In this document: in pieces, positions 6,001 to 36,431 of the stretch
Position numbering within the stretch: position 1 is the stretch's first letter
Layout: each line of letters begins with the position of its first letter
Source: an uncultured Tepidisphaeraceae bacterium
GTDB taxonomy: Bacteria; Planctomycetota; Phycisphaerae; Tepidisphaerales; Tepidisphaeraceae
NCBI GenBank assembly: GCA_964499005.1
Contig: CAZCKE010000001.1
Coordinates: forward strand, 1 to 39,946
Direction of reading: 5' to 3'
DNA: 39,946 bases
Translations under genes and position numbers: made by a program
Notes under the pieces: model-generated
The model's database searches: none
Told to the model about the DNA's origin: nothing
The model's input: the letters and a program-made list of their open reading frames with translations, nothing else

Positions 6001-9000
6001 TTCCGCGTCCGTACCGTCGGACCCGGCAATGCATATGTCTCCGATGTCTCCAATGTGGCCAGCGCCGCGCCATTTGCCGTCGCGCAAGCCGCCCAGCCGA
6101 CCGGCCTGACCGTGACCGTTTTATCCAACTCCGAAATCCGCGTCCGATGGAACGACAATGCAAACAACGAGGATCACTACTCGGTCGTGCTCTACTGGAA
6201 TGGCGGGCTGGATATTCCGAACGAAACGGACGGCTCGGAGGAAAACACGATCTATGACATGCGCGAGGTCGCCTCGGACGTGAACGATGTCGTCATCGAC
6301 GACTTGCAGGGGGACACGCTCTATGAAGCGCGCGTGCACGCGACCAACTATGCCGGAGCTTCGGTGGTTTCGGACATGGTGGAAGTGCAAACACTTCCCG
6401 ATCCACCAACCGGTTTAGCCGCCGTCGCGACCTCGCCGACGACGGTTCACGTCAGTTGGAACCAGGTGCTTAGTTCCTCGGGCTATCATCTGCAACGCAG
6501 CCTTGATGGACAAAACTGGACCAGCGTCGGACCGGCGACGATCACAGACACCAGCTACGACGATACGAACGTCGGCGCCAATTACCTCTACCGTATTTCG
6601 ACGACAATGCCGGATGGCGACTCCCCGTTCAGCGCCGCGGCGGCGATATCGGAACCCAGCATTACCGATTTCAGCGCGAATAACGTCACGACGAGCGAAA
6701 TCGACCTGGCATGGACCCCGCTGAGTTCCGCGTCGAGCTACGAAATCGAACGCAGCACGGGCAACAACTTCATGTGGACGCTGCTTGCCACGGTGGATGG
6801 AAGCGCCAGCAGTTACGCCGACACTAATCTGATCACCGGAACGTCTTATTACTATCGCATACGGGCCCGCAACGCGATCGCCAGCTCGGCCTATACCAAC
6901 ATCAGCGCGATCACCATGCTGCCCACCCCGATCAATCTGGCTGGCAGCGTCTCGGCAACTTCCGCCAGCCTCAGTTGGATCAGCAGTGAAAGCGCCGTCA
7001 CTTACCTGATCCAGCAACAGATCAATGGTATCTGGCAAACCGTTTCCAGCGTGTTCAACACAAACCAAGCAACCTTCGGCGGCAGCTTCGCCCCCTCGAC
7101 GGTCTATAATTTTAGAGTCTCCGCGCGATCGGGCGGCGCCAGTTCAGATTTTTCGGATTCGCTCGCGGTCACTTCGCCGGATTTTGCCCCAACGCCGAGC
7201 GGGTTTACCGCCTCCAATCCCTCGTTCACATCGATCGATTTGTCCTGGGCCGCCAGTGCCGGCGCGCAAGATCAATTTATTCTGGAACGATCCAGCAACG
7301 GCGGGGCCTTCTCCACGATTGCTGTCCTGGATGGAAGCACCAGCGCCTTCACGGACAGCGGATTGGCTGACGGGACCTCCTACACGTACCGACTCTCGGC
7401 AAGCAATTCAGCGGGACGATCAGGCTTTACCGTGCTCAGCGCCACCACGGCTTTGGATGTACCCATTCATTTTGCCGCATCTTCCGTTACCTCTTCGGCC
7501 ATTACACTCACCTGGCAGGCGGCCAACGCCAACGCCGCTTACAATCTCTTCCAGTCCACCGATGACATCACCTGGCAGCCGCTGTCTCAACAGTCGCAGT
7601 TTGCCCGCTCGTTTGTGGTTACCGGCGCCTATCCTCCCGGCACGCCGTATTATTTCCGCATTCAAGCGTCGCTGAGCGGAATGCTCTCCGCGACGGTCGA
7701 TTTGTCGGGGACCACCCCTGCGTATCCACAGAAGCCGGCGGGGATTTCCTTAACCAATGTCGGCATGACGGGCGTCAGCATTAGCTGGACGCCCGGCTCG
7801 TCGGACGCCACGCAATTCCAAGTGCAACGCGGCATCTTCGCCAACTTCTGGCAGACGCTGGCCACAGTCGATGGCAGCGTCACATCCTATTTCGACAACT
7901 CGGTCGCTCACAATACCTCGTACAGTTACCGGATCATCGCGGTTAATGCCTTTGGACAATCGATTCCCGGCAATTCAGCCTCCATCGTCACGCCGTTGGT
8001 GGCGCCCGCGGCGCTGGCCGTGACCAGCGTCTCGGGCCATGAAACCGATCTGTCGTGGGCGCTGCCCAGCGAAGCGCTGAGCGGCCTGGATATCTACCGC
8101 TCGACCAGCGCTTCCTCGCTGGGGACGGTCATCGCGTCCATCGGGACAACGGACACCACCTATTCGGATTCAGGTCCGTTCAATTCCAATGCAACGTACT
8201 ACTATACCGTGGTTGCCAAGAGCGGATCGGTGAGCGCTGCGAGCGCGAGCGTCGCCGTCACGACGGGGAATTTCCCCCAGACTCCGACCAACGTCACCCT
8301 CGTCAACGGCAATTCGGAATATCGATTGAATTTGGCCTGGTCCGCCGTCGCGGGCGCGAGCAGTTACACGATCTATCGACGGACGGTGAGCACGCAGTGG
8401 ACCTTCATTAATACCGTCGACGGGTCGGTGCAAAGTCCCGGCTATTCCGATAGCGGGTTGGACCCCGGTCGGGCTTATGAATACCGGATCACGGCCAGCA
8501 ATGCCGCCGGCGAATCGGGATATTCCACGGTGGCGGCTTTGGCAACCTCCCTCATCGATCCGGCATCGCCTGATGGGCTGACCATCACGGCTGATCCGAA
8601 CGATGGCACGGTCCTGAACCTGACGTGGACCAATCACGCCGGCGACCAGAGCGGCTTTGAGGTGCAATCGGCCGAGTGGGGCGCCACAAACTTTGCCATG
8701 AACGATATCTATTCCTCCTCGGTGACGATCGGCCCCAGCGCCACGTCGTATCAAGCGACGGGCCTGGTCAGTGGTCAGACATATTTCTTCCGCGTGCGTG
8801 CGATCCGTCCGGATGGCCCGAGCGACTGGTCCAACGAAGCCTATGGGATCACCGCCGACCCGCAGCAGTTCGGCGGGCAATATGCCGCCGCTCCTGGCAT
8901 CGTCGGCGGCGCGCCCCTTCCCGGACCCAGCGGCTTCCTGCACCAGTACGTCGTCACCGTCAACGGCAACGACGTCTATAACTTTGTCCCGACCGCCGAC

Positions 9001-11241
9001 GTTCCTGTTTCAGGCAAGCTGGTCTTCTCCAGCGCTCCGGTCTGGGCGAGCTCGCCGGAGGATGCGATGCGGCGGGCGCTGGTGGCCGATCAAAGCTCCA
9101 TCGTCCTTCCCTCGGGGGACGGCATGGCCCCGTCGATCAACATCCCCTGGCTCGACCCGCGCTATCTGCGGCTGGAGTTCCTGTCGTTCATCGGCAATCC
9201 CGAAGGGGAATCGGGCGTGGACGCTTCCGGCGAATCCGATCTGGACGGGGCGACGGGGCATTTCCGAACGTACATTTCCTACAACAACGACTACTACAAC
9301 TGGACCATCCACCCCTGTCCGAACATCGACATTTACGAGTATTATGAGGGGACGCATCAGGAGAACGGCGTGTGGGTGCCCGACCCGTATACGCCGGCGC
9401 AGCTCGATAGCTTTACGGCGACGGATGGGAATAATTCGGGGAACAGCGTGACGGCAAGTGATGCGAATCCAGTCACGCTATATATTCCAGTAAATTATGG
9501 AGGTCGAGTATCTATTAACCTGTCTGATCAAGCAATTGCTGCATCAGATGGCGATCTCGATGATGTCTTGTGGGATGCTCGTGGAAGCAATAACGCCGTA
9601 ATTTCGTCAGGTACTTTCTCCTCTGGTCCGACAATTACACTCGATGCACCCAGCGAGGGTGACACTATCACGATTGAGGCCGGCGTCGATAGAAGCGGAA
9701 ACGATAAATTGGAAGGAACTGAAGTCACCCGAACAATCAAGGTAGTCTTTCAAAAGTTGATTCTTGCCTGGAATACTTCCGAACAAGAGAATAGCCAATT
9801 ACACGGTTTCGCTCTCGATATTGGGGGCATAACCTCTACACCGAATGAAGTATTCGACCCAACTTTAGCACTCGGTAACCAATCATTGACGATCGACTGG
9901 GGCGATGGATCGCCGGTTGACGATGGTACTGCGCCGCACTTTTTTGATGATGAAGGAGAATATCAAGTACACATTTCAGGTACGGACCCAACCGGTCGTC
10001 AATTCGTCACGTCTTTTTCAATCGATGTCGCTGATCCTGCCGAGCCTGCTGATCCGGTTGAACAGGCATCGCTCGAAAGCGGAGCACTGAGTTGGGATTC
10101 TATAAATGGGGCTGTCCGTTACGACATCTATCAAGGTGCTGATTCAAGCATTGGAGACATGACTTATGTAACCTCCGTTACTTCACCTGGGTATTCAATT
10201 CCAGACAATGGCGGCAATGGAGTCTTCTATTCCATCGTTGCTATCATGCCCGATAACACACAGCAACCTGCTGGTGACATTTTCGCGTCACCTCCGAGCA
10301 CCGCTCCGTCAAATATTGGACCAGCACCGTCGGTGCCGCCGCCATTATTTACTTATGTCGGGGTGGCAACATCAGCACAAAACGGCGCCGCAATCGCAGC
10401 TTTAAAACTACGATATGCAGCAGATCCATCAAACATCAATAATCTGCTAGTGGGAATACATGATGTGACGATTACCGATATCGGAGCTATAGTCGATTTT
10501 AATGGATCCTTTTCTTCCATTGGCAACATAAAAAAGGATGCCGCTGGAAATTATGTTCGCGAGGGAGGTTATGCAACAGCGAGAGCTTGGATGATTAGCA
10601 TGGCAGGTCACCAGCGCACGAACATACAAGATCTGGGAAACGGGACACTTACCGCTAATCTCCAAGATGGTACCAACGTCAAATTGTCTAAAGATGGGGA
10701 TTGGGGAGACGTCCTTATTACCACTTCTGCAGGAGTAGTTACTCCCGTGACATTTGAGAATCCGGTGCGAGAGACAGATTTTAGATTTGCAGGACCAGGT
10801 CAAGGAGCTCAAGGGAATATTGATGTGACGGACTTCATCAATAGTGTATTGATAGAAGAAAAAGATGCAACGGGTTTATTGAACCCATGGAATCTTAAGA
10901 ACCCGGCTGCGCCTGATCCAAAAGTTGCAGATAAGAAGAAAACGGAATTGGCATGGGCGCAAGAAAAGATTTTTAACGATACAAAAGCGCGTCTGTTAAA
11001 ATTGCAGCGAGCCGGGCAGGTCACCTATGCAGAACCTGGGAAATACGTCGGTCCGGTGACACCCCCAACTATTGATAAATACCAAGCTATAACAAAAGTG
11101 GTAATCCGATTTGTCGGTAATCCAGCCACATATGCTAATTGGTCATTTATTATTATAGCCGGCAACCAAGTTGAAGCACTGAATAATGATCCACAGCTAA
11201 AAGCGTACGGATATACGTTCTCAATCCAATGGCCATTTTAG
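1..11241 (+). CDS. Giant secreted/surface repeat protein (5' partial, more than 3,740 aa visible): FN3 array, PKD/Ig-like domains and a variable C-terminal module
   Basis: Frame 1 has no stop from nt 1 up to the TTG at 55 used by the ORF track, so the gene is cut by the window edge. The translation shows about 22-24 FN3-type modules with recurring Y-x-[YF]-R-[VI]-x-A signatures (YYFRIRA, YTYRVQA, YFFRVIA, YYYRIRA, YEYRITA). PKD-type modules carry SNDPDGDSISSW...WGDG motifs. Stop is TAG at 11239-11241. Confidence 0.95.
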   Translation, partial: GSYQVQVSIQDFNGQTSPLSTVALVNYTGATAPTAPTNFAVSAGQTNTTFSWSGGSGTNFSGFMVYGITSSNTVVTLGTTGSSTRSLTIANSSMPSTVVQAFVVAETSTFPVAYSQYSNIAAVRVNSLSVPAAPANLAATLALSSGHAVANLIWDNTSDAELGYYVQRQLHSNPGSWATIATLAADQDSYADTIPDVSKIYDYQIIAFNNKGNSSASNTVTVSCLPTVTLGSIPSATEGSGMTLTSTTSPAISGDSLSYAWSIFDQNGNPYTPSGVALNQSSLTFTPIDSGNWSVSLKATDSTISSGSQIASTTINSGNIPVAVLPPTVTISGSSSYSAGPGGYRLNVSAVYPSNDPDGDSISSWTVNWGDGVPGNPDIVTYTNIVDHIYHPYTTPNPNVTITASATDDDGTYAANLISLTVTPSVSDLSATADTHGAINVRWVYFWPGGHFDIQRSTDGATFTTISSMSADSSTNELLYTDTSGQANTHYYYRIHGTDSAGYNFYTNIASATTAAPGTYGAAPLDTIVVPVDGSSVVSNVTLLAGVHYLLQASGAFFLGGDIGRADAEYSYSPYNNTVIADDANVNYGVDINDTSNDLNKSTWWGPYNTSHVYTIDFIGTGQQLSFNLHDDNYSDNVQDNNPSPLEVQIFAEYPAAPSNLTAQYSVASQQVNLSWTDNAATETGFRIERSTDGQNFSLLQTLNSPSSGIGGTVTAADATAVLGQKYWYRVFAIGPSGFDPNAPSNVAVLSLAGPTVTLGSVPSAAEGSSMTLTSTATAANSSDTLAYAWSIFDAGTLYTPSGVALNQSSLTFTPNDPGNWWATLAVTETQTGATTTASTGTFAVANLPPTVSISGASTVAQSVAYTLSLSAVYPSNDPDGDSISSWQIDWGDGTSSNPDVQTVSGNPSSVTHVYQVQPASGVITATATDDDGTYAANPLHIQVTAPPAVTIVGAPSTSPEGTAITLTGTTSNFPTAPSFLWSVTKDGQAYTSGLGPTNQGSFTFTPNDDGVYVVTLVGTAGSVQASNSQTINVTMVAPTASIIGLTQTITEGNTVYLAAQASDPSSVDAATLQYAWTVTANGNAFASGTAQSFSFTPTDGSVYDVSLTVTDPDGQSTTVTGSTQPIPKAPMTLIAETVASDTINLRWQDESHIEDYYKIEASSDNGNTYAQLGTASVDITHFLATGLNPGTRYLFRVTGIRNGQGTNIATAIASTDPAALTGLTATAVANSDSQIHLTWNAPSGSINPNIEAIQVEYRSNEDFNYTQLQPFSPTTTSTTLTNLDPNTVYYFRIRAWTTPGAYHGPDYLGNNDSVNLSPYSALATATTNNVLPTAPTNVTASATGLPGQIHVTWSGDSTYADGFNVRVSTDGGQSFDPPVVTPGPTTSMVDLNWWDPRQSYVVEVSAFNKVGESTSTVSGSVTPTAMGAVGSLQASPVSNHQIQLSWAYTPAPSSNSYFPTFIIQASVEGGPFATIWTTNGTSYNDINLTAGTSYTYRVQAQYNGGFSDYSASATAITTNALPLDLSNPSLSDTLSFGVLSFGYTAPTDLNRDGINVEISTDGVNYAPATLPVSFFGAPNSIVGLEPGTTYYVRAYAYNSVGRSDYLYFNPVATHAVTSPTMISASTPTASIGYPQANSNTQLALQWNYSPTPGTSEPQSFEIQQLAQGDSDYHDAGTLQNFNPSNNIVTTLIKNLTPGVSYQYRVRAVYADYYKTNWSDASAPVSTTALLPSMPSNLSATPSGSTQAIFNWNSSSLVTDAFSVQISSDGTNFTDAGTTLFVPNASTFGIPVQGLAPSTTYFLRVQAFNSVGVSGWTDAVSVTTGPASSGNAPIVPVAPSATTLDSAIAVNPGEIDLQWTSVDRATAYLAEISSDDTTFTPIGQTSGTSYAARGLTISTHYFFRVIASNAGGDAPPSNVLDATTPPYAAPANLTATPVSQTQISLAWTETNTDESGFRVEESTDGLTYAPVNQVSHPPTTTPSDMRAYLVQGLNPGQLYYFRVRTVGPGNAYVSDVSNVASAAPFAVAQAAQPTGLTVTVLSNSEIRVRWNDNANNEDHYSVVLYWNGGLDIPNETDGSEENTIYDMREVASDVNDVVIDDLQGDTLYEARVHATNYAGASVVSDMVEVQTLPDPPTGLAAVATSPTTVHVSWNQVLSSSGYHLQRSLDGQNWTSVGPATITDTSYDDTNVGANYLYRISTTMPDGDSPFSAAAAISEPSITDFSANNVTTSEIDLAWTPLSSASSYEIERSTGNNFMWTLLATVDGSASSYADTNLITGTSYYYRIRARNAIASSAYTNISAITMLPTPINLAGSVSATSASLSWISSESAVTYLIQQQINGIWQTVSSVFNTNQATFGGSFAPSTVYNFRVSARSGGASSDFSDSLAVTSPDFAPTPSGFTASNPSFTSIDLSWAASAGAQDQFILERSSNGGAFSTIAVLDGSTSAFTDSGLADGTSYTYRLSASNSAGRSGFTVLSATTALDVPIHFAASSVTSSAITLTWQAANANAAYNLFQSTDDITWQPLSQQSQFARSFVVTGAYPPGTPYYFRIQASLSGMLSATVDLSGTTPAYPQKPAGISLTNVGMTGVSISWTPGSSDATQFQVQRGIFANFWQTLATVDGSVTSYFDNSVAHNTSYSYRIIAVNAFGQSIPGNSASIVTPLVAPAALAVTSVSGHETDLSWALPSEALSGLDIYRSTSASSLGTVIASIGTTDTTYSDSGPFNSNATYYYTVVAKSGSVSAASASVAVTTGNFPQTPTNVTLVNGNSEYRLNLAWSAVAGASSYTIYRRTVSTQWTFINTVDGSVQSPGYSDSGLDPGRAYEYRITASNAAGESGYSTVAALATSLIDPASPDGLTITADPNDGTVLNLTWTNHAGDQSGFEVQSAEWGATNFAMNDIYSSSVTIGPSATSYQATGLVSGQTYFFRVRAIRPDGPSDWSNEAYGITADPQQFGGQYAAAPGIVGGAPLPGPSGFLHQYVVTVNGNDVYNFVPTADVPVSGKLVFSSAPVWASSPEDAMRRALVADQSSIVLPSGDGMAPSINIPWLDPRYLRLEFLSFIGNPEGESGVDASGESDLDGATGHFRTYISYNNDYYNWTIHPCPNIDIYEYYEGTHQENGVWVPDPYTPAQLDSFTATDGNNSGNSVTASDANPVTLYIPVNYGGRVSINLSDQAIAASDGDLDDVLWDARGSNNAVISSGTFSSGPTITLDAPSEGDTITIEAGVDRSGNDKLEGTEVTRTIKVVFQKLILAWNTSEQENSQLHGFALDIGGITSTPNEVFDPTLALGNQSLTIDWGDGSPVDDGTAPHFFDDEGEYQVHISGTDPTGRQFVTSFSIDVADPAEPADPVEQASLESGALSWDSINGAVRYDIYQGADSSIGDMTYVTSVTSPGYSIPDNGGNGVFYSIVAIMPDNTQQPAGDIFASPPSTAPSNIGPAPSVPPPLFTYVGVATSAQNGAAIAALKLRYAADPSNINNLLVGIHDVTITDIGAIVDFNGSFSSIGNIKKDAAGNYVREGGYATARAWMISMAGHQRTNIQDLGNGTLTANLQDGTNVKLSKDGDWGDVLITTSAGVVTPVTFENPVRETDFRFAGPGQGAQGNIDVTDFINSVLIEEKDATGLLNPWNLKNPAAPDPKVADKKKTELAWAQEKIFNDTKARLLKLQRAGQVTYAEPGKYVGPVTPPTIDKYQAITKVVIRFVGNPATYANWSFIIIAGNQVEALNNDPQLKAYGYTFSIQWPF
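670..1269 (+). repeat. Internal segmental duplication, copy A (pair of PKD/Ig-like domains)
   Basis: Encodes LPTVTLGSIPSATEGSGMTLTS...YAWSIFD...ALNQSSLTFTP...PPTVTISG...VYPSNDPDGDSISSWTVNWGDG...ATDDDGTYAAN, collinear with copy B. Shared nucleotide runs include gcctggtcgatcttcgat and gacagcatcagctcatgg. Confidence 0.85.
2260..2832 (+). repeat. Internal segmental duplication, copy B (pair of PKD/Ig-like domains)
   Basis: Encodes GPTVTLGSVPSAAEGSSMTLTS...YAWSIFD...ALNQSSLTFTP...PPTVSISG...VYPSNDPDGDSISSWQIDWGDG...ATDDDGTYAAN, collinear with 670-1269. Confidence 0.85.
3370..8840 (+). repeat. Uninterrupted array of about 20 diverged FN3-type modules (protein-level repeats of roughly 90-100 aa) inside the giant CDS
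   Basis: Each unit has an 'L(T/S)A...(I/L)xLxW' start and a 'Y(Y/F)(F/Y)R(V/I)xAxN..G.S..S' end. Units are diverged at nucleotide level, so this is not a simple tandem DNA repeat. Confidence 0.8.
8950..9047 (+). repeat. Junction segment of the giant gene that recurs at 15333-15430
   Basis: gtcgtcaccgtcaacggcaacgacgtctat...ccggtctgggcg (VVTVNGNDVYNFVPTADVPVSGKLVFSSAPVWA) aligns without gaps to 15333-15430. About four fifths of the bases look identical by eye. Confidence 0.85.
9406..9750 (+). repeat. Conserved roughly 115-aa Ig-like 'pre-tip' module of the giant gene (AT-rich version), homologous to 12183-12518
   Basis: DSFTATDGNNSGNSVTAS...[17 protein letters not shown]...SSGTFSSGPTITL...EAGVDRSGNDKLEGTEVTRTI aligns with the start of the 12117 ORF. 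About half the residues are identical by eye, including long identical runs. Synonymous positions differ strongly (A/T here, G/C there). Confidence 0.85.
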
Positions 11242-11260
11242 ATTTATAAATTTTCTTATT

Positions 11261-11575
11261 ATGTCAATAAGTTTAACCATAAGTTGGGCGGACGGGCGCT
11301 TTGAGCAAATTCCGGTGGCTGGACAGCTATCTGCCAGTACAAGCTGGCGAGACCTTGGACTAGAATTGGGATTAAAATGGTTGCCACTTTTTCACGCTTG
11401 GATACCAGTGGAACCGGAAAATCTGGACGCACTAATCAGCGAGGTAGAAAGATTTCGTGACGCTGCTTCAAAGCGAGGCGACAAATGGAAGTCTATTACA
11501 GAAAGCGCGGATCGACTTACCACAGCATTGCGTGATTTGAAAGATAAAAGCGGCTGGGAAGCATCAATTGGTTGA
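11261..11575 (+). CDS. Small soluble hypothetical protein (104 aa); candidate cognate immunity/antidote for the giant protein's C-terminal tip
   Basis: ATG lies 19 nt after the giant gene's stop on the same strand. It shares the AT-rich composition of the giant gene's tip. No hydrophobic segment and no recognisable motif. Position is the only functional evidence. Confidence 0.6.
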   Translation: MSISLTISWADGRFEQIPVAGQLSASTSWRDLGLELGLKWLPLFHAWIPVEPENLDALISEVERFRDAASKRGDKWKSITESADRLTTALRDLKDKSGWEASIG

Positions 11576-11643
11576 TCACAGTTTATTGGGCCGTGATGCT
11601 TATCGATGTGAAGCGAGTGTGTTGATAAATCTCTTAAAACCCC

Positions 11644-12108
11644 ATGATTACGACCAAGTTACGTAATATCGCGCGATCCTTGGTGAATTTGAGCTTTGGC
11701 ACACTTAGCGCCATATCGCTGTGCATAGTGATAGTGTTGGTTGTTATTCGTCTTAGTGGACGAACATGGACTTACTCGATGCCTCTAGCAACAACTCCGC
11801 AGGCATATCACCTTAACTCGTCCGTAGATGTCGAAGTCAATTATTCTGGCGGTATAGCCATCGAGCAAGATTACCTACCCCACATATTTGGCAGAAGGAT
11901 CCCATATTTCGCGGCTATCGTTTTCACAACAATTGTCCCGATTCTTTACGCGATTTTTTACTGGTATCGCGCGCGCGAGAGAAGATATCGCCTTGCAAGT
12001 AAAGTTTGCGCCATTTGCGGCTACGACCTCCGCGCTACCCCAGACCGCTGTCCGGAATGCGGCGCCATTCCCAAAAGCTCCATCAAGCCATCTCTGCCCA
12101 TGTTTTGA
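11644..12108 (+). CDS. Two-pass membrane protein with C-terminal CxxC...CxxC zinc ribbon ([19 protein letters not shown])
   Basis: Two hydrophobic spans (about aa 14-36 and 86-108) flank a roughly 50-aa loop. A basic stretch (RARERRYR) and a 4-Cys ribbon follow. It has the same architecture as 14693-15328 and a nearly identical C-terminal 30 aa. Confidence 0.75.
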
Positions 12109-12116
12109 TTGGCGGT

Positions 12117-14696
12117 ATGGTAAAAAATCTCATCCGCGCATTGCGGCCAATCCTGAGCGTCGATCTGACGGCGCCAGAGACGGATAGCTTGACGGGAACA
12201 GATAGCACCAATTCAAATAATAGCGTGACGGCGGAAGGAACGCAGGAGCTGTACGTGCTGGTGAATGCCAATGGGAACGCGACGGTGAAGTTCTCGGACA
12301 GTGCGATCGCGGCTTCGGACGGGGACACCGATGACGTGCTGTGGCGCGTATTGCAGGGCAATACGACCATCGGCTCGGGGACGTTCTCCAGCGGGGCGAC
12401 TATCACGCTCAATCCGGCAACCCAGGGAACGGAGTTCATCGCCGAGGCGGGCGTGGACATGTCGGGCAATGACAAGCTGGAAGAGCCGGAGGTGACCGAG
12501 ACGATTCGGATTCACCTCACGCATTTCGGCGGCATCACCGCATTTCGTACCGATGGGAAATTTGGTCAGGCTGTCACACGAGCTATTCAACAGACCAATG
12601 ATCCGACGAAATACGTCGTACTTGTCAACGACAACTTTGACCAAACGCTTGATCAGAGCCAAGCGGACAACGCGTTACCTACAGCACCGATTCAAAATGA
12701 TCAGATGCAACTCGATCAAAACGGTAATCCGCTCGATCCTGACTTTGGACACATTACGCTGCACCAGCTCCCGCAGGGGTTCATTGGCGGAACAGTAACT
12801 TTGCTACTATCCGACCCAAGTGCGGTAAAGCTCTTTGATAAAAATGGCCAGGCGCTCACCTCCGGCGATCTGACCCTCAATCTGTCAAATCCCAGCGGCT
12901 ATCTTGCTGGCCTGTTGTCAGGCGACGTAGATATCTGGTTTGAGGGGATGCACACGAGTCCAGATTTCAGTTTCACGATTTCCTATAATGAGCCTGCGGT
13001 AAGCCAATATTCCCAAGATGTGGTGCATCTGCTCATCGCCGACTGGCAGTTCGTCGGCTCCGATGGCAATCGGCTCACCAACGATGTCTCTACAGTTTCC
13101 GAGGAAACGTTGACGGATGAAGCTAACGGCAATCTGGATTCACCGACTATTCCTAACGAAGACAAGTTCAAAGTTCTTTTAGACGGCTTGCCCAGCACCG
13201 CACTCCAATCGCTTCAATTCAACTCAATATCGGGCCCAACGGACAGCTTCCTAGACACATTTTCGGGGACTTCATCCTCAACCTCATCGAATAATTTCAC
13301 GGTGATGTATGGTGTTCCCGATGGTTTAAGTCAGTTTTCGACGAGCCAGCGGAGCTCCATTTTAAGTGCCCTCGGAGTTAACGCCATTGCCGCGAATACA
13401 GTTCGAGTAATCGCGCAATTGGCGAATGATGTTTTACAACAGGAGATCAAAGCTGACCCCATGCGCGTAACATTTGTCAGCGGAGAAGATCCAACGGATG
13501 GGACTATTGAAACAAGGAGATCAATTGACAATAACGAGCCCTTTTACATGAAGGGCTATATGCTGGAACTGGAAGTCAACAATAAAGTCGGCACTCAGGT
13601 CCAATGGTCATTTCAGAAGATAGGGCATGGCAACCAGGATTTCGGGGCTTTTTATGACGGCCATGATTGGGTGGATTATGCGGATAACCACAAATTGAAC
13701 GCCAAACCGACGGATGGCCTCGTAAATTGGCGATCTGACTTTGATGCTAACGGCGATATCAATGATGAATATTCCATTACGGCCAAATACACCAAGCCGG
13801 ATGGCACGCCGGGATTCTCGACTCTTCATTTAAAGAGCCGGCTTCTGGACCCAAATGACCCCAACGCCAGTGCGAAATACCACACCGACGCGGATATGGC
13901 GCAGAGAGCGCTCATCCAGGATTTCGGCCTCGACAAAGGGCGATTAAGCTCTTATCGCATCGGACAATATGATAAGGGCTCCCAAAATGGCTGGTACGTG
14001 TCGTCGCGGCAGATGAATGTGCGTCAATGGTCCGCTATCGCAGACGAGGTCTCGAATTTCCGCCATTTCGCGCTCAACAAGGCATTTGATCCGACGCTTC
14101 TTCTGGACACAGTTACGGGCATTTGGAATGAGTTTTCCAAGATTCTTGCCGCACCACTCCCTAATAAAGTGGACCAGAATAACGCACAATTCGGAAATTG
14201 GATCACTCAGGCATTAACGGCCAGCGGACTTACGGCACCAAATGGAGCGTCCGTGACCAGTGAACAAATCTTGCGGGCTTTGATCACGCATGAGAGCGGA
14301 GGAACGCATTCCTATGATTTGCAAGCGCCGCTTGCCGCTAACTACATTCAGGTCGGGACACAAAACAACGGAGCTGGGGCCAATTTGCACCAATTAACTG
14401 ACTGGGGGCTTGGCTTCGCGAAAGTCCAACCATATAACGACAATGGCTTGAATCTGTATGACCCCTATCAAAATATCTTACGTGGAGCACAAATGTTCGC
14501 GGCTGCCCTTGCAAACCAGGGAATAAATGAAGTGGGAGACAATAGGATCTGGATGGCCTATTACTACTATAATTCGGGGCACATCGAAAATGGGTCAATA
14601 GATGGCGCGGGAGGAGCTCGTGCAGTAAATAGATTCGGTGCCGCAGATCACGCCGACGCTTTCTTTAGTGCTTTAGGGCTTCAGCCTCCCCAATGA
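12117..14696 (+). CDS. Orphan C-terminal module of the giant-protein family (about 859 aa): conserved Ig-like pre-tip module, unknown middle, lytic-transglycosylase (SLT/lysozyme-like) C-terminus
   Basis: The ORF-track start at 12006 overlaps the preceding gene. The first in-frame ATG after that gene's stop is 12117. The N-terminus has no signal peptide and aligns to aa about 3118-3232 of the giant protein. The C-terminus carries SLT-type motifs in order: LITHESGG (catalytic E-S), [33 protein letters not shown]. The stop overlaps the next start (caATGAac). Confidence 0.8.
12183..12518 (+). repeat. Conserved Ig-like pre-tip module, GC-rich copy (homolog of 9406-9750)
   Basis: [18 protein letters not shown]...[17 protein letters not shown]...[13 protein letters not shown]...[21 protein letters not shown]. 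Similarity to the giant protein stops right after this block. Confidence 0.85.
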
Positions 14697-15328
14697 ACGT
14701 ACCAACGAACCAAAAATGGAAACGACGATTTACGCGAACGGCACTTATTCTCGATATAGTTCTCTTGCTTTCTGCCGTTACAGCTTGGACGATTAGCAAT
14801 TTTTTCGCCTTCGGTATAATACAGCGAGAGTACGAAATATCTGTTGCTAAAAATTCTCTATTCGATGACGATGGCAATGAATTCGTTTCTCGCTATCGCG
14901 GCTTGGATGTCTCCATGGGGGTCATCATATACTTTGTTTACATTGATCGACTGTCATTAACGCACGTTCCGAGCGACACCAAGCTGCAGGTTTCCGGAAC
15001 CCATTTCGTGCTTGATAAAAGACGCAATTCGCCAAGCCTACTCAGAAAAGGCATTTTGGGGATCGAAGTACGTAATGAACCACCGCATCAAGCAGGACAG
15101 CTCGGCAGTATCGGCTCCTCATTATTGATTTGCGTGCCGTTGTGGTTTTTCTGCATTCTTTTTAGCGTGTGGCCATTACGAATTTTGGTCGGGTTCGTGC
15201 GTCGCCGCGACTACGCCGCCATTCGCTGCGAGACTTGCGGTTACGACCTGCGCGCCACTCCTGATCGTTGTCCGGAGTGCGGCGCTGTTCCCGAACATCC
15301 AATCAAACCCTCATCGTCGATAACTTGA
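14693..15328 (+). CDS. Two-pass membrane protein with C-terminal zinc ribbon ([19 protein letters not shown]); candidate immunity partner of the SLT-like orphan module
   Basis: ATGA start/stop overlap with the upstream module. TM1 is about aa 16-42, followed by a roughly 100-aa loop and TM2 at about aa 141-170, then RRRDY and a 4-Cys ribbon. The C-terminal 30 aa nearly match those of 11644-12108 (DNA 15227-15316 versus 12007-12096). Confidence 0.75.
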
Positions 15329-15332
15329 TTGA

Positions 15333-15443
15333 GTCGTGACCGTCAACGGCACCGACGTCTACCACTTCTTCCCCGATGCCACCGTTCCCGTTTCGGGCAC
15401 GCTGGTTTTCTCCAGCGATCCGGTCTGGCGTAGTGTAAAATAA
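15333..15443 (+). pseudogene. Third orphan fragment of the giant-gene junction region, truncated by IS insertion
   Basis: It starts 5 nt after the previous stop and encodes VVTVNGTDVYHFFPDATVPVSGTLVFSSDPVW, homologous to 8950-9047. Homology ends at about 15430, where the sequence runs into tgtaaaataattc (IS end) and a stop at 15441-15443. Confidence 0.8.
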
Positions 15444-16707
15444 TTCATCCGCGTCTCATGCGGCCTCCTTGTAATAGAATTTCAGCAGTCCACCCAACCG
15501 TTCCCGGCACTGCACCGGTCCATCGCGAGGATAATCAGTGTCGGTGAGCGCGGGAAACAGGAGCCGATTCTGCTTACCTTGATGCGGCCGCTCGGAATGG
15601 TAATGCTCGATGTACTGCGTGACGGCGTGGCGCAGGGGCGCTTCGCCGAAGAAGATCATCCGGTCCAGGCACTCCGATTTGATCGAGCGGACAAAACGCT
15701 CCGCGAACGCATTGAGATTGGGACTTTGCGGCGGCAGAGCCAGCGGCTCAATGCCGGCGGCGCGGAAGATCATGTCAAAGCCACTGGAGAATTTCGTATC
15801 CCGGTCGTGCAGAAGATATCGGCAGCGGGAGAGCAGATCGCAGCCGCTCATGGTGAGGTTGCGTGCTGCCTGCTTCATCCACGCGTTGGTGGGATTGGCG
15901 GTGATGCCGCCGAAATAAACTTTGCGGCTGGCGACGTGTATGAAGAACAGGACGTAATACGTGACCAACCCGCAGGCGGTCCAGACTTCGGTGGTGAAAA
16001 AGTCCGTGGCCAGCAGACAATCGGCGTGGGACTTGATGAAGTCGGACCAGTCGGTCTTCCTTTTTCGCATCGGCACCGGGTCGATGCCATGTTCTTCGAG
16101 GATGTTTTTGACGGTCTGATGGCTGAGTCCATGGCCGATGGCAGCCAGCGCGCCGGTGATCCGCCGATAACCCCAAGCTGGATTTTCGTTGGCCAATCGG
16201 AGGACTTGCATCACGGCGGCCGGATCGGTCGGCGGCCGACCGGGGACGGCGGCTGCCCGGCGGTCGGAGGTGTCGAACTTTCGGGCCACGAGTTGCCGAT
16301 GCCAACGAAGGATCGTATCCGGCGTGACGATGGAGGCGACGTCCTGGAGGAGTTTGCGGCCGAGCTTCTTGCCGATCGTGGCCAGTGTGGCGCGTTGGGC
16401 GTCGTTCAATCGCCGTCGGCCGGAGAGTTGATCGCGGAGGATTTTGTTCTCGGCGGTCAGGTATTCGATTTTCAATTGAAGCTGATGGTCAATGCGGCCG
16501 GCGACCCAGGCGAGGATTTTTTCCCAGCCCGTGGAATGGGATTGAGGCATCGGGTGAATGTAACGGTGTCGGCGGGATTCTAAAAAGAGAGATCGGCAGG
16601 AAAACCGCCAAGAGATTTTGGGGCAGATTTGGGGCAAAACGGCCTCCAGAAACAGTCCAGAGGCAGTTCAACGCCAGTTCGCACTCAGTTCATAAGTCCC
16701 GTTTACA
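15431..16707 (-). mobile_element. Insertion sequence with single rve/DDE transposase (IS481-like); boundaries approximate
   Basis: The left boundary is where homology to the giant gene breaks (about 15430), followed by TGTAAA. The proposed right end is the complementary TTTACA at 16702-16707. The terminal inverted repeat is weak beyond 6 nt and I found no target-site duplication. Confidence 0.55.
15456..16550 (-). CDS. DDE transposase / integrase core (rve) domain protein with N-terminal HTH region
   Basis: rve-type landmarks in order: LLATDFF (D), LLHDRDTKF (D), NAFAERFVRSIKSE (E), then YNSERPHQG-like HYHSERPHQG. I prefer the ATG at 16550 (MPQSHSTGWEK). The ORF track extends to 16637 with an implausible Cys/Arg-rich leader. 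Confidence 0.9.
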   Translation of the reverse strand: MPQSHSTGWEKILAWVAGRIDHQLQLKIEYLTAENKILRDQLSGRRRLNDAQRATLATIGKKLGRKLLQDVASIVTPDTILRWHRQLVARKFDTSDRRAAAVPGRPPTDPAAVMQVLRLANENPAWGYRRITGALAAIGHGLSHQTVKNILEEHGIDPVPMRKRKTDWSDFIKSHADCLLATDFFTTEVWTACGLVTYYVLFFIHVASRKVYFGGITANPTNAWMKQAARNLTMSGCDLLSRCRYLLHDRDTKFSSGFDMIFRAAGIEPLALPPQSPNLNAFAERFVRSIKSECLDRMIFFGEAPLRHAVTQYIEHYHSERPHQGKQNRLLFPALTDTDYPRDGPVQCRERLGGLLKFYYKEAA

Positions 16708-16895
16708 AGGGCGTTAAGGCTCGATTTTTAGGTAATAGCGAAGGTTCCGACCTTGGTTCGGGACCAAGAGGTCGTAAAACGATACTCACCATCATCACAC
16801 CGCAATCATTTGCGTAGTTGTCGCGAACGGCCACAAAAGTTGCTGTCATGTGGCCGACCTGGATAGATTCCCTCCACCCATCTGCCAAGGAACAC

Positions 16896-17654
16896 ATGTC
16901 AGACGCAACGAACTCCGTGGCCCGGCGCGCCAAGCCCACCGAACTCCTCTCCCACTGGCCCAAACTGATCGAGAACCTCAGCTTCTCTCCGCAGGAGTTC
17001 TACTCGCGTATCGAAAAAGCCCTGGCCGACCGTCAGGTTCCCGACCTGCAAACCTCACGAGTGGATTGGAAGGAAGGCGGCGTGCTTTCGGCCCGCCGCG
17101 AATACCTGCGCCTCCAGCGCGAGCGGCTGATCTTCGACATCTGCGGCGCTCCCTTCGGCACCGGTTTTTTCGTCTCAATCTGGTGCGGCGAGCGGCCCTT
17201 GAGGCTGGGGCACCTGATCCGAGCCCTGATCTTGGTGGGAAGCGGAGCGGTGACGTGGTTTGGGATACTGCAATTCACGCCCCGCTCCACGTTTTATGAA
17301 ATGCGGCGCATGGGCATCGATCCGGGACATGCGCTCATCGCCATCACGGCCGCCGTCGTCCTGGTGGCCACCTTCCTGATCGTGCTGCTGGGCCCCAGGC
17401 TCGATAACATCCTGATCCACACGCCTGTGATCGGATACTTCTACGAGCGCTACTTCCGAAAACTCACCTACTACCGCGTGGACCGGATGTGCATGTATCA
17501 ACAGGCTGTGCATGCGGCGGTCATGCAAATCATCGACGAGATCACCAAATCCCAGGGCATCCAACCCCTCTCGGAACTGGAACGCCGGCCGATCACCAGA
17601 GAACCGGTCATGAGGGAACTGTTCCAGCAAGCCGGTTCCAATGGGCACGGCTGA
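16896..17654 (+). CDS. Hypothetical membrane protein (about 252 aa from ATG 16896; ORF open from 16818)
   Basis: A soluble N-terminal roughly 100 aa (SFSPQEFYSRIEKALADRQVPDL...) is followed by 2-3 hydrophobic spans (GFFVSIWCG, LILVGSGAVTWFGILQF, ALIAITAAVVLVATFLIVLLGP) and a roughly 90-aa tail. Its stop overlaps the next gene by 14 nt (ATGGGCACGGCTGA). Start codon is uncertain (16818 TTG, 16848 ATG or 16896 ATG). Confidence 0.7.
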   Translation: MSDATNSVARRAKPTELLSHWPKLIENLSFSPQEFYSRIEKALADRQVPDLQTSRVDWKEGGVLSARREYLRLQRERLIFDICGAPFGTGFFVSIWCGERPLRLGHLIRALILVGSGAVTWFGILQFTPRSTFYEMRRMGIDPGHALIAITAAVVLVATFLIVLLGPRLDNILIHTPVIGYFYERYFRKLTYYRVDRMCMYQQAVHAAVMQIIDEITKSQGIQPLSELERRPITREPVMRELFQQAGSNGHG

Positions 17655-20600
17655 ACCTCCGGCAACTTCAGTTCTCTCTCCAGCCCAACAGCTTGCCCAG
17701 CAATTCTATGATTGGGAACTGCGGGGAAGGGGATGGCTAATGTGGGATCGTCCGGTGGAACCGGAGCCGCCCTTTCAACCTTTTTTCGATCATGTCATCG
17801 CGCCCGTCGATGGCGACGACGGCAGGAAACACACCCTCCTCAGCGGTCTGATCGATTGGCTGCACCAAAAGGTCACGGGTCAGGGAAATAATACCTCTGC
17901 ACAGACAATCGAAGAATCGCCAGGGGAATTCGAGCCGATCGAACTCGCCGAGCCTTCCGATTTGGTGGAGCTGAGGATATCGCTTCCCCAGAACCTGGAC
18001 GTATCCCAAGAAGCCGCCGAGCAATTCCTGCTGAGCCTATCGACCGTCCGCCGCCCGGTTGCGTTTGAATTGATCGGATTGCCCGAGACGATGATCGTGC
18101 AATTCGCCTGCGAAGGGGATGATGCCGCTCATCTGGAGCAACAATTGAGAGCCATCTTTCCCGACGTAACCGTCAGTGTCCACGCCGGTCTTCTACAAGA
18201 GTACTGGCAGGAGCCAGAGAATGCCGAAACGGTCATCGCCGAATTCGGCCTCGCCCGCGAATTCATGCTGCCCCTGGCGATGCCCGGATTCTCCGTTGAT
18301 CCACTGACCGGCATCGCCGGCGCCCTGGTGGATGTGCGGGAAGATGAAATCGCCCTCCTGCAAATCCTGTTTCAACCCGTCCGGCACCCTTGGGCCCAAA
18401 GCGTGCTGCGCTCCGTCACGTTCTCCGATGGCACGCCCCTATTCGAGGGCATGCGGGATTTTGTCAAACAGGGCAGAAACAAAGTCTCTCGGCCTCTGTA
18501 CGGCGCGGTCATTCGCGCCTGTTGCCAAAGCCCCGAGGGCAGCCGGACTTGGGATATGGTGCGACATGTCTCAGGAGCACTGTCGGTACTTTCGGACGCC
18601 CAAGGCAATGAACTGATCCCGCTTGATAACGACAATTACGACCCGACCGATCATGAGCACGATGTCCTCTTTCGCCGCAGCCGCCGCTGCGGGATGCTTC
18701 TCAACAGCGAGGAGCTGACCTCACTGGTTCATCTCCCCTCGGCCTCCGTTCGCATTCCCAAGCTGCGCGGACAAGCGAAGAAAACAAAACCCGTCCCGCC
18801 GATGGTCCTGGGCCATCAAACGGTACTGGGGATCAATGAGCATGCCGGACGATCCCAGTCGGTGACAATGAGCCCCGACCAACGCTCGAAGCACCTGCAC
18901 CTCATCGGCGCCTCGGGAACCGGCAAATCCACCCTTCTCTTAAACCTCATTATCCAAGACATCAACAAGGGCGATGGTGTTGCCGTCCTCGATCCCCACG
19001 GTGATCTAGTGGATGCGGTCTTGCAACGAATCCCTCCCCAGCGGAGAGGGGATGTAGTGCTCTTTGATCCGGGGGATGAGGACTATCCGGTCGGGTTCAA
19101 CATCCTCTCCGCCCACTCGGAACTTGAGAAAAATCTGCTCTCCTCCGACCTGGTCGCCGTCTTTCGCCGCTTCTCCACCAGTTGGGGCGACCAAATGAAC
19201 GCCGTCTTGGGCAACGCGATCATCGCTTTCCTGGAAAGCGAGCGGGGAGGGACTTTGGTGGACCTGAGGCGGTTCCTGGTCGAAGCCAAGTTCCGCAAAG
19301 AGTTCCTCTCCAGCGTCCGCGACCCGGAAATCGTCTACTACTGGGCGAAGGAGTTCCCGCTCCTGAGCGGCCGGGCTCAGGCTCCGGTTTTAACCCGCTT
19401 GGATGCCTTCCTGCGCCCCAAGCTGATCCGCTACATGGTGGGCCAAAAGCAGAGCAAGCTGGATTTAGGCCAGGTCATGGACAATGGGGGTATTCTCCTG
19501 GCCCGCCTGTCCCACGGAGCGATCGGCGAAGAAAATGCCCAACTGCTGGGCACGATGCTCGTTTCCAAGCTCCATCAGATGGCACTGGGCCGCCAGCGGA
19601 TTGCGGAGACGGATCGCAAATACTTCTGGCTCTACATCGATGAATTCCAGAACTTCGCGACGCCATCGATGGCGGCGATTCTCACGGGAGCACGGAAGTA
19701 TCGCCTGGGGCTTGTTCCGGCCCATCAGGAGCTTCACCAGTTGACCAGCAAGACACCGGAGGTCGCCAGCGCGGTGATGTCCAACGCTTTCACGCGCGTC
19801 TGCTTCCGGCTGGGGGATGAGGATGCCAAAAAGCTTGCCGGCGGTTTTGCCTCCTTTGAGCCTATTGATTTACAGAACCTCTCGACAGGCGAGGCGATCT
19901 GTCGGGTGGAACGGGCGGAGTTGGACTTTAATCTTCGCACATTGCCTCTGGCGCCAGTCGATGAGCAAACGGCGGCGACCGCGCGACAAGAGGCAATCAC
20001 TGCCTCTCGCCAGAGATATGCCGTCCCGCGCGCCAACGTTGAAGCAGAACTATGCCGCTCGCCCGGGGATGAGGAAGCTGGGGTACAAGAAGCGAAGGTT
20101 TGGGAAAAGCCAGATCAGAATGTGGATATCAAGCTTCCCGAGCCGGTCTTGGCTCCGCCATCTACACCCGTCGGACCCAAGCCCGTCCCTCGTCCGCAAA
20201 AAGTTACCAGCGATGTCATGATCGAGCCGCCACCCCAAGGCCGGGGCGGACCCGAGCACAAATACCTCCAGCAATTGATTAAACAGTATGCCGAGGGCCT
20301 GGGGTTCAAAGCCTCCATCGAGGAAAACATCCTCGGCGGAAAGGGCGTGGATGTTGCTTTGACCAAATGCGACACCTCCATCGCCTGCGAAATCTGCATC
20401 ACGACGGACGATGCTCATGAATTGGGGAATGTGCAGAAGTGCCTCACAGCCGGCTACAAGCATGTTGCGGTCATCAGCCCCAGCGCCAATCGATTGAAGA
20501 GTCTTGAGAAAGCGATTAGCCCCCAATTGGCGGATGACCAGAGATCGCGTGTGAAGTTCTTTGCACCCGAGGAATTGCTGCGGTTCATCCAACAGTTGGA

Positions 20601-20760
20601 AGTCCAGCAATTGACCCAGGAGAAGATCGTGCGGGGCTACAAGATCAAAACCAGCTTCAAGGTCATGGATGAAGCGGACGGGGACATTCGCCGGCAGGCC
20701 GTTTCTCAGACGGTGGCCAAGGCGATCAAGCGTTTGCAGGATCGCAAGGCCAAGAAATAA
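17641..20760 (+). CDS. Large P-loop NTPase of the TraD/VirD4/TraG-HerA/FtsK type (1039 aa) with unknown roughly 400-aa N-domain and possible PD-(D/E)xK-like C-terminal domain
   Basis: Walker A GASGTGKST at 18907-18933. Walker B hhhhDE in FWLYIDEFQNF at about 19624-19653, followed by RKYRLGLVPAHQELHQL (coupling-protein/TraG-D_C-like Q-x-x-x-QL). After a Pro-rich linker comes GRGGPEHKYL...GVDVAL...IACEICITT...NVQKCL (20233-20505), which resembles a restriction-endonuclease-fold core. Confidence 0.85.
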   Translation: MGTAEPPATSVLSPAQQLAQQFYDWELRGRGWLMWDRPVEPEPPFQPFFDHVIAPVDGDDGRKHTLLSGLIDWLHQKVTGQGNNTSAQTIEESPGEFEPIELAEPSDLVELRISLPQNLDVSQEAAEQFLLSLSTVRRPVAFELIGLPETMIVQFACEGDDAAHLEQQLRAIFPDVTVSVHAGLLQEYWQEPENAETVIAEFGLAREFMLPLAMPGFSVDPLTGIAGALVDVREDEIALLQILFQPVRHPWAQSVLRSVTFSDGTPLFEGMRDFVKQGRNKVSRPLYGAVIRACCQSPEGSRTWDMVRHVSGALSVLSDAQGNELIPLDNDNYDPTDHEHDVLFRRSRRCGMLLNSEELTSLVHLPSASVRIPKLRGQAKKTKPVPPMVLGHQTVLGINEHAGRSQSVTMSPDQRSKHLHLIGASGTGKSTLLLNLIIQDINKGDGVAVLDPHGDLVDAVLQRIPPQRRGDVVLFDPGDEDYPVGFNILSAHSELEKNLLSSDLVAVFRRFSTSWGDQMNAVLGNAIIAFLESERGGTLVDLRRFLVEAKFRKEFLSSVRDPEIVYYWAKEFPLLSGRAQAPVLTRLDAFLRPKLIRYMVGQKQSKLDLGQVMDNGGILLARLSHGAIGEENAQLLGTMLVSKLHQMALGRQRIAETDRKYFWLYIDEFQNFATPSMAAILTGARKYRLGLVPAHQELHQLTSKTPEVASAVMSNAFTRVCFRLGDEDAKKLAGGFASFEPIDLQNLSTGEAICRVERAELDFNLRTLPLAPVDEQTAATARQEAITASRQRYAVPRANVEAELCRSPGDEEAGVQEAKVWEKPDQNVDIKLPEPVLAPPSTPVGPKPVPRPQKVTSDVMIEPPPQGRGGPEHKYLQQLIKQYAEGLGFKASIEENILGGKGVDVALTKCDTSIACEICITTDDAHELGNVQKCLTAGYKHVAVISPSANRLKSLEKAISPQLADDQRSRVKFFAPEELLRFIQQLEVQQLTQEKIVRGYKIKTSFKVMDEADGDIRRQAVSQTVAKAIKRLQDRKAKK

Positions 20761-20801
20761 CTTCCTCACCCAATAAAAATTCAAAAGTAGAGAGATTTTG
20801 C

Positions 20802-27788: not shown

Positions 27789-27803
27789 AAATAACGGATT
27801 CCA

Positions 27804-31153: not shown

Positions 31154-31167
31154 GGTAAGACTCAATA

Positions 31168-32199: not shown

Positions 32200-32201
32200 C
32201 A

Positions 32202-34251: not shown

Positions 34252-34254
34252 GCC

Positions 34255-36428: not shown

Positions 36429-36431
36429 GCC

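Follow-up and report, generated by a model that had tools for sequence, protein, structure and literature searches.

ZnR1 and ZnR2, two small genes on a 40-kb contig of an uncultured Tepidisphaeraceae bacterium (CAZCKE010000001.1; "the window" below means this whole stretch of DNA), are integral parts of exchangeable low-GC cassettes, each composed of a variable tip and the gene or genes downstream of it. Both encode proteins with two predicted transmembrane (TM) segments and a C-terminal zinc ribbon, and both belong to a family that is among the largest lineage-specific protein families of Phycisphaerae. Genes of this family recur on two unrelated contigs directly after the domain that ends the second tip. 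We tentatively propose, as a distinct possibility, that the ZnR proteins are periplasm-facing cognate partners of their adjacent tips and probably protective. The genes of interest all lie on the plus strand (55-15443). The C-terminal part of a giant FN3/PKD-repeat protein forms the first variable tip (tip 1), preceded by a conserved junction domain and followed by the small gene p104 and then by ZnR1. A separate gene, orphan 1, carries the junction domain again together with tip 2 and is followed by ZnR2. An insertion sequence (IS) element then interrupts a third orphan module after 32 homologous codons.

The composition of the array marks out the cassettes. GC content at third codon positions (GC3) is ~0.8 in the body of the giant gene, drops to ~0.3 at ~9440-9480, within the junction domain, and remains at 0.3-0.5 in a block from ~9450 to ~12000 that spans tip 1, p104 and most of ZnR1. 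It is back to 0.8-0.85 in orphan 1's junction domain (12168-12512), versus ~0.3-0.45 for the copy in the giant gene (9391-9745). Within the second cassette GC3 is ~0.4-0.68 in tip 2, 0.35-0.57 in the N-terminal part of ZnR2, equal to or slightly under tip 2, and 0.73 in the stub of the third orphan. Both ZnR genes lie 8 GC points under the window average; among 115 family members, just 2.6% differ that strongly from their own locus. Since this low GC is shared with the tips and is rare in the family, the ZnR genes appear to travel with the tips, in agreement with their earlier description as cassette components. The same profile suggests that an older junction, tip 2 and ZnR2 became orphans through displacement by an inserted block of junction', tip 1, p104 and ZnR1.

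Spacing between the genes is tight. The ZnR1 stop (12106-12108) is separated by an 8-nucleotide (nt) gap from the ATG of orphan 1 at 12117. The orphan-1 stop is overlapped by the ATG of ZnR2 in an ATGA (14693-14696), which points to translational coupling of the two genes. Homology to the giant gene returns at 15333, 4 nt past the ZnR2 stop (15326-15328), with a GTG at 15336, giving a downstream gap of 4-7 nt. No plus-strand terminator-like site was found among the cassette genes. Each ZnR gene thus closes its cassette with the next orphan a few nt away, as a sequence-only reading of this DNA had stated. A TTGATTG context (TGATTG after the stop) is common to both ZnR stops (12106-12116 and 15326-15336), possibly by chance.

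ZnR1 and ZnR2 align by BLASTP only in their C-terminal 38 amino acids (aa), 26 of which are identical (E 4e-17), consistent with the near-identical C-termini noted before; outside the last 38 aa BLASTP finds no pairwise similarity. The ribbon in both follows the C-terminal pattern CxxCGYDLR(A/G)xPxRCPECG (CxxC-11-CxxC, four Cys), and the window holds just these two such motifs. Kyte-Doolittle analysis places hydrophobic segments at aa 12-43 and 86-108 of ZnR1 and at aa 13-43 and 137-170 of ZnR2, enclosing unrelated loops of ~48 and ~93 aa, respectively. Lysine and arginine are enriched in both proteins at the N-terminus and after the second segment (TM2). From this distribution the positive-inside rule predicts an N-in/C-in topology, with the loop periplasmic and the ribbon cytoplasmic. 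The order of TM segment, variable loop, TM segment, basic patch and ribbon proposed in the sequence-only reading is therefore upheld. An AlphaFold model of ZnR1, made with a 19-sequence alignment as input, has helices at residues 2-37 and 88-119 with a predicted local distance difference test score (pLDDT) of 81-91, a ribbon at 85-88 and an unstructured loop at ~50; a Foldseek search of the model against the PDB gave no match. In the source database ZnR1 is entered (P0001) as a 109-aa protein starting at M46, with the first TM segment (TM1) missing (the 11644-11778 region). The family alignment and profile described below support, at the sequence level, the 154-aa ZnR1 starting at 11644 over that call. 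A further contig, L081, also carries ZnR2 but is 100% identical to the window and adds no information.

The family to which both proteins belong is very large. More than 7,148 significant clusters among the 8,000 scored were returned for ZnR1 and 1,811 protein matches for ZnR2, and almost none of the relatives carries a Pfam domain or a name; among the 1,811 matches there is no close homolog of the ZnR2 loop. A scan with one genome per species yielded at least 513 loci, of which the best 80 were used for neighbourhood analysis. Of these 80 loci, 78 are labelled Planctomycetota, 74 of them in Phycisphaerae and mostly Tepidisphaerales, so the abundance of the CGYDLRG ribbon in planctomycetes, mentioned in the sequence-only reading, proves real. 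Individual Phycisphaerae genomes have dozens of family paralogs. Tandem arrays of 2-4 family copies with different loops are present in 24 of the 80 loci (e.g. L009, L021, L038 and L061). Proteins P0003, P0004 and P0006 are fusions, and some chains hold two complete TM-loop-TM-ribbon modules. A phage origin of the family was considered and rejected, as just 3 weak matches were found in 2.9 million viral contigs.

Members share a positively charged N-terminus running into TM1 (consensus MRRxxRxLFNxxAxxSLLL), a loop whose median length is 81 aa, a TM2 with vPyW in front and a conserved Pro inside, and an Arg-rich linker that leads to the ribbon. In an alignment of 19 sequences, the best-matching relatives, 16 of 19 ribbon positions never vary and the Gly of CGYDL hardly does; the other two positions are the xx of the first CxxC. 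The loops are hypervariable, 102 of 141 having no significant match to any other loop. A family profile was built from 208 relatives with ribbon and linker removed, and 400 shuffles served as control. ZnR1 and ZnR2 score 18.4 and 28.5 bits, respectively, against this ribbon-less profile, versus a shuffle maximum of 8.8. TM2 contributes 13.5 and 19.5 bits and TM1 6.5 and 7.6 bits, while the loops by themselves give -1.3 (ZnR1) and -2.0 (ZnR2) bits. Only 3 of 975 other open reading frames (ORFs) reach 25 bits or more, all three within family arrays. Both proteins therefore carry the ribbon, the framework of charged N-terminus, TM1, vPyW TM2 and linker, and an unconserved loop, the three traits by which the family is recognised.

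No curated model above threshold covers the family: NCBIfam, PHROGs and PADLOC gave no match for either protein, and Pfam DZR (PF12773) matches weakly at 19.4 and 18.4 bits, under its cut-off of 27.3, with the weak matches spanning the ribbon exactly. The two CxxC knuckles are what is shared with DZR and generic zinc-ribbon models; the membrane part and the function lie outside these models. No literature containing the motif CGYDLRG was found, and papers containing GYDLR were irrelevant. The ribbon probably serves a function of the whole family, which could be docking to a conserved cytoplasmic partner, localisation or signalling, and it is unlikely to be a determinant of toxin specificity.

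With the last 300 aa of orphan 1 as query, a full HMMER search (cut-off E<1e-10) found 36 relatives of the tip-2 terminal domain, nearly all with the domain at the extreme C-terminus, in proteins of 224-2,159 aa. Where the N-terminal parts are recognisable they consist of FN3, dockerin or TSP3 repeats. A single terminal domain on varied N-terminal architectures is characteristic of polymorphic toxins and is what the tip-2 domain displays. The combination of conserved junction, variable C-terminal module and orphan is likewise present, with 54% aa identity between the junction copies and 82% DNA identity of the third-orphan stub to 8950-9045. One close homolog of orphan 1, P0238, is 42% identical. 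Invariant columns of the domain are the E of HES (aa 726 of orphan 1), TDxGxG together with a Gln five residues on, and YxxG, and most members read TDxGxGFxKVQ and YNxG. Pfam SLT (PF01464) is the sole recurring family, matching 11 of 20 relatives below threshold (best 7.9e-5); for orphan 1 the score is 12.5 bits (E 0.11) against a cut-off of 21.3. These matches are suggestive of a divergent lytic-transglycosylase or lysozyme-like fold below the Pfam threshold. PDB sequence and profile searches with tip 2 gave no match, an AlphaFold model of the domain was unusable (pLDDT 33), and a pattern search for canonical SLT proteins in the retrieved loci found none. Scans of metagenomes gave no result for either tip-2 relatives or the junction domain. 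Some 80 aa upstream of the SLT-like domain is the motif (F/Y)(M/L)KGYML. Many of the short gene calls among homologs start there or slightly ahead of it, as expected of orphan modules; L097 is an exception, its ORF running upstream of the motif through a Ser/Pro-rich linker.

Six loci with the tip-2 domain have a readable downstream slot, namely the window, L092, L094, L095, L096 and L097. A ZnR-family gene follows the tip-2-domain gene directly in three of them: the window (ZnR2), L094 and L097. In L094 and L097 the family recurs directly after this domain outside the window. In L094, a contig of a metagenome-assembled genome at NCBI, the effector gene is followed by a plus-strand ORF that reaches 29.6 bits with the ribbon-less profile and shows RRLPLKRFFAFAFVLC...WAYSY and IVIPFWMLLLPFAL...KLRTGR before the contig ends. 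The gene caller had placed a 176-aa minus-strand ORF over it (3197-3926). With ATG 3197, its nearest canonical start, the plus-strand ORF would share 95 nt with the 3' end of the effector gene, leaving the start codon uncertain. In L097 (JGI) the called gene has its ATG 2 nt past the effector stop, scores 35.0 bits and is cut by the contig end. Related genomes carry about one extra family cluster per ~190 kb, a background of ~1% or less per slot, and two independent matches in five loci are unlikely by chance (order of 1e-3).

The other three slots (metagenome contigs L092, L095 and L096) hold mutually homologous signal-peptide proteins of 267-368 aa, those of L092 and L095 being 30% identical over 262 aa (E 1e-38). 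This secreted family is absent from the window, and neither the ZnR loops nor p104 shows similarity to it. It is likely, judging by sequence and position, a periplasmic immunity family for the tip-2 domain. In all six loci the slot after the tip-2 domain thus encodes a protein predicted to be exposed to the periplasm. Two closer relatives of orphan 1, P0238 (JGI contig 3300056388) and P0239 (JGI contig 3300047160), have downstream genes of 236 aa and 195 aa, respectively. P0238 is the closest tip-2 homolog; past its 236-aa neighbour come genes of 513 aa and 167 aa, the latter matching DZR weakly and closing a second cassette.

The surroundings of the family at large are of a different kind. 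Family genes are dispersed through the 80 loci with no conserved neighbourhood. Upstream same-strand neighbours are of housekeeping type and include dihydroorotate dehydrogenase, MsrA/B, semialdehyde dehydrogenase, YchF, an MFS transporter, CotH and HEAT/VWA proteins; downstream neighbours are equally miscellaneous. Giant proteins are missing from all 80 loci, as are relatives of the two tips, of p104 and of the loops, and profiles for the effector domain and the secreted partner had no match there. One of the two closest full-length ZnR1 relatives lies in a small integrase/resolvase islet and the other between rpmI-rplT and an ABC-F gene. A family-wide tie to giant proteins or tips, for which the sequence-only reading had proposed a survey of CGYDLR-ribbon genes, is rejected on the basis of these 80 loci and the two close ZnR1-like homologs. 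With no giant protein or tip in any of them, a general tip-immunity family is unsupported, the outcome which that reading had itself named as counting against it. Its proposal of a polymorphic immunity family accordingly falls as a family-wide claim, while an immunity-like role of ZnR2 is independently supported by the tip-2-domain relatives in L094 and L097.

This dispersal raises the question of whether the two ZnR genes are bystanders, paralogs of a duplicated family with an unrelated cellular role whose copies were carried along with moving DNA blocks. Scattering among housekeeping genes, frequent tandem duplication (the 24 loci above) and the lack of loop similarity among the three tip-2-associated members would all fit such an origin. 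It is nevertheless doubtful, because a family member stands right after the tip-2-domain gene in half of the readable slots against a background of ~1%, because the ATGA overlap points to translational coupling, and because the tip-like composition of the two genes is atypical of the family.

Under the proposed partnership, each ZnR would act as the cognate partner of its neighbouring tip and shield the producer. The tip-2 domain would act in the periplasm by cleaving peptidoglycan and would itself be bound or blocked by the ZnR2 loop; the secreted partner of the other loci would play the same role. Tip 1 might be served likewise by ZnR1, by p104 or by both, and the ribbon would perform the function common to the whole family. 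Several points weigh against this picture. Most family members are unconnected with tips, as the housekeeping neighbours and tandem arrays make clear. An invariant cytoplasmic ribbon is unexpected in a pure immunity protein, and p104 is a second candidate partner in cassette 1. The 236-aa protein after the closest tip-2 homolog is not among the top ZnR2 matches. Partner types are interleaved, P0241 and P0242 being 51% identical yet having different partners, and the three ZnR loops adjacent to tip-2 domains are mutually dissimilar (z 0.3-2.4). The independent loci are few, the L094 and L097 contigs end before the ribbon, and the L094 start is uncertain. No trafficking domain was found in the last 800 aa of the giant protein or in orphan 1, and the toxicity of either tip is putative, the SLT similarity lying below the Pfam cut-off with no PDB match and a model of pLDDT 33.

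The architecture of the family also invites a sensory reading, in which the loop would sense a periplasmic ligand, either the tip or an incoming effector, and the ribbon would relay the signal to one conserved partner, after the manner of a membrane-bound anti-sigma factor or a receptor repertoire. A hypervariable exposed part joined to an invariant cytoplasmic part over thousands of members, and dozens of paralogs per genome, are what such a transducer might look like. ZAS anti-sigma factors have an N-terminal HxxxCxxC, one TM segment and a gene beside an extracytoplasmic-function (ECF) sigma factor, and they share with the ZnR proteins a cytoplasmic zinc-binding module joined through a TM segment to a variable periplasmic part. 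The ZnR ribbon, in contrast, is C-terminal with CxxC-11-CxxC, there are two TM segments, and no sigma-factor neighbours were seen. The HxxxCxxC motif is absent from ZnR1 and ZnR2 by direct reading, and no ECF sigma factor, kinase or other regulator recurs among 82 neighbour proteins of family genes. The ribbon is without a known partner, and replacement of the ZnR gene by a secreted soluble protein in half of the tip-2 loci goes unexplained. A sensor or signal transducer is therefore unlikely. In a further, likewise unlikely scheme, the whole family would make up a repertoire of binders, anchored in the membrane and facing the periplasm, against incoming cell-wall or envelope effectors, each with its own hypervariable loop and all wired through the invariant ribbon to a common cytoplasmic partner. 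If true, this would be a receptor-like immunity arsenal and not a set of one-to-one antitoxins.

The loop might instead dock or restrain the tip of its own giant protein as an assembly or anchoring accessory, for instance with the SLT-like domain opening the wall for export. An SLT-like domain on a surface protein with no recognised toxin-trafficking domain would be compatible with this, as would a partner that is always periplasm-exposed. Orphan modules, low-GC cassettes and domain shuffling are, however, the signature of polymorphic effectors and not of dedicated assembly factors, and we regard an accessory role as improbable.

Homology between the DNA segments 12007-12096 and 15227-15316, described in the sequence-only reading, is genuine, with 81% identity over the 57-nt ribbon and 61% over the following 33 nt. 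The further suggestion that this conserved 3' end is kept as a downstream homology arm for cassette exchange does not hold up. One feature would suit it: the low-GC3 block of cassette 1 ends near the ZnR1 ribbon, with GC3 of 0.47 in the N-terminal part and 0.68 in ribbon plus tail (34 codons). No such step is present in ZnR2 at ribbon plus tail as a whole. Among 115 family ribbons from unrelated genomes the mean identity is 74%, and 15% of random pairs reach 81%, which is thus ordinary for the family. The longest exact run between the two genes is 8 nt, and 12 of the 19 differing codons are synonymous and 7 non-synonymous. The short run and the synonymous excess indicate conservation at the protein level and not maintained DNA identity, so that a recombination arm is highly improbable. 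The 61% identity over the 33 nt past the ribbon is reached by 1.5% of random pairs and suggests, from sequence, that ZnR1 and ZnR2 are somewhat closer paralogs.

Among known systems, the closest functional analogues of the proposed partnership would be the periplasmic immunity proteins of peptidoglycan-hydrolase effectors and the two-TM CdiI-type membrane immunity proteins. In the type VI secretion (T6SS) pairs Tse3-Tsi3 and Tge-Tgi, a peptidoglycan-hydrolase effector is matched by a periplasmic immunity protein. A lysozyme/SLT-like effector in the periplasm and a periplasm-exposed protector would be common to both, and the secreted family of L092, L095 and L096 fits this pattern directly. The ZnR proteins differ in being anchored by two TM segments with a cytoplasmic ribbon, there are no T6SS genes in the window, and the SLT similarity is sub-threshold. 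Pore-forming colicins have small membrane immunity proteins. Like these and the EC93-type Imm-CdiI, the ZnR genes encode a small inner-membrane protein directly after a (putative) toxin module; the known proteins, however, act via their TM segments against membrane-active toxins, have short loops and no zinc ribbon, and show no sequence relationship to ZnR1 or ZnR2.

To our knowledge, interbacterial antagonism in planctomycetes has barely been explored. By analogy, the locus would work like a polymorphic effector-immunity array with orphan modules. Shared with polymorphic toxin systems of the CDI (contact-dependent inhibition)/Rhs type (Zhang et al. 2012, PMC3482391) are a large surface protein with a conserved junction and variable C-terminus, orphan modules that keep the junction, low-GC cassettes, a small and tightly coupled downstream gene, a terminal domain reused on other N-termini, and one candidate toxin family with several partner families. 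That survey lists cases of one toxin family with several immunity families as well as two-TM immunity proteins (Imm-CdiI), and it lists no two-TM zinc-ribbon immunity family (PMC3482391). Differences here are the absence of Rhs, FilH, VENN, PAAR and LXG domains by Pfam, tips of ~500-720 aa that are candidate toxins by sequence, and a partner that has an invariant cytoplasmic ribbon and comes from a huge family mostly unlinked to toxins. Pfam and NCBIfam scans for Rhs, FilH/VENN, PAAR, LXG and MafB-N trafficking domains, covering orphan 1 and the final 800 aa of the giant protein, found PKD only, and PADLOC and PHROGs recovered no defence-system or phage families among the cassette genes. As the search for trafficking domains was negative and the partner family lacks a curated model, the array would stand outside any named toxin or immunity family.

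New in this locus are the recruitment of a huge uncharacterised family, with hypervariable loop and invariant ribbon, to what would be an immunity slot, and its alternation with a secreted partner for the same effector domain. If the proposed partnership is true, the SLT-like tip-2 domain and ZnR2 form a concrete pair that makes the function of this large family testable. Two kinds of protein would then neutralise one and the same effector domain, a secreted periplasmic one and a membrane one whose cytoplasmic module is conserved, and polymorphic effector cassettes would extend to the giant FN3/PKD surface proteins of planctomycetes. The negative results have value of their own: tip-linked immunity does not characterise the family overall, and the ribbon DNA does not act as a recombination arm.

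Table 1. Coordinates of the cassette array in the window and of the secreted partner genes on other contigs
Feature	Positions	Strand	Evidence or remark
Giant FN3/PKD-repeat protein, 3,728 aa	55-11241	+	ORF; PKD matches; FN3-type repeats visible in translation
Giant-gene segment recurring in third orphan stub	8950-9045	+	96-nt direct repeat, 82% identical to 15333-15428
Junction domain, 118 aa	9391-9745	+	54% aa identity to orphan 1; BLASTP E 4e-28
Tip 1, low-GC variable C-terminal module	9746-11241	+	GC 0.46, GC3 0.39
p104, small protein between tip 1 and ZnR1	11261-11575	+	104 aa; GC3 0.39; same low-GC block
ZnR1, 154 aa	11644-12108	+	ORF, BLASTP, hydrophobicity, AlphaFold model
ZnR1 TM1	11677-11754	+	
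ZnR1 loop	11755-11898	+	
ZnR1 TM2	11899-11967	+	
ZnR1 linker	11968-12006	+	
ZnR1 zinc ribbon	12007-12063	+	tail then runs to stop
Orphan 1, 859 aa	12117-14696	+	own ATG; junction domain 12168-12512 (high GC3), then tip 2
FYMKGYML motif	13542-13565	+	orphan 1 aa 476-483; opens ~400-aa terminal module, conserved among relatives
Tip-2 terminal domain (orphan 1 aa 560-859)	13795-14693	+	weakly SLT/lysozyme-like
Tip-2 motif HES	14283-14303	+	
Tip-2 11-aa motif	14397-14429	+	
Tip-2 motif YYNSG	14562-14579	+	
ZnR2, 211 aa	14693-15328	+	ORF, BLASTP, hydrophobicity, profile
ZnR2 TM1	14729-14821	+	
ZnR2 loop	14822-15100	+	
ZnR2 TM2	15101-15202	+	
ZnR2 linker	15203-15226	+	
ZnR2 zinc ribbon	15227-15283	+	tail then runs to stop
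Third orphan module stub, 37 codons, VVTVNGTDVYHFFPDATVPVSGTLVFSSDPVW...	15333-15443	+	homology ends after 15428
IS transposase (rve_3/HTH_32)	15456-16637	-	Pfam rve_3 3.1e-13; insertion truncates cassette array
Secreted partner gene, L092	5725-6696		no Pfam entry on record
Secreted partner gene, L095	1608-2408		no Pfam entry on record
Secreted partner gene, L096	1408-2511		no Pfam entry on record

The first cassette is otherwise poor in recognisable features. Tip 1 consists of one PKD-like unit followed by ~330 aa without any match, PKD being the only hit in Pfam, PDB, PHROG and PADLOC searches. Hydrophobicity analysis finds no TM segment in p104, which is therefore taken to be soluble, and family, structure and PDB sequence and profile searches with it gave no match. 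The giant ORF starts 54 nt from the contig edge with no recognisable signal peptide at its first start codon (55-140), and the N-terminus of the protein lies at the contig edge. The remainder of the third orphan module beyond the IS element was not found in the window. Adjoining the array is a mobile-element-like unit (16818-22652) comprising a 278-aa two-TM protein, a 1,039-aa TrwB/TraD/HerA-like ATPase (Pfam TrwB_AAD_bind 6.4e-11; PADLOC mad8 4.7e-19) and a large serine recombinase with Resolvase and Recombinase domains. The region 24175-37643 holds a minus-strand beta-helix/PKD protein and then a polysaccharide biosynthesis cluster that includes UDP-glucose dehydrogenase, a Wzy-like ligase, a flippase, three GT2 glycosyltransferases, a DUF218 protein and a GNAT acetyltransferase.

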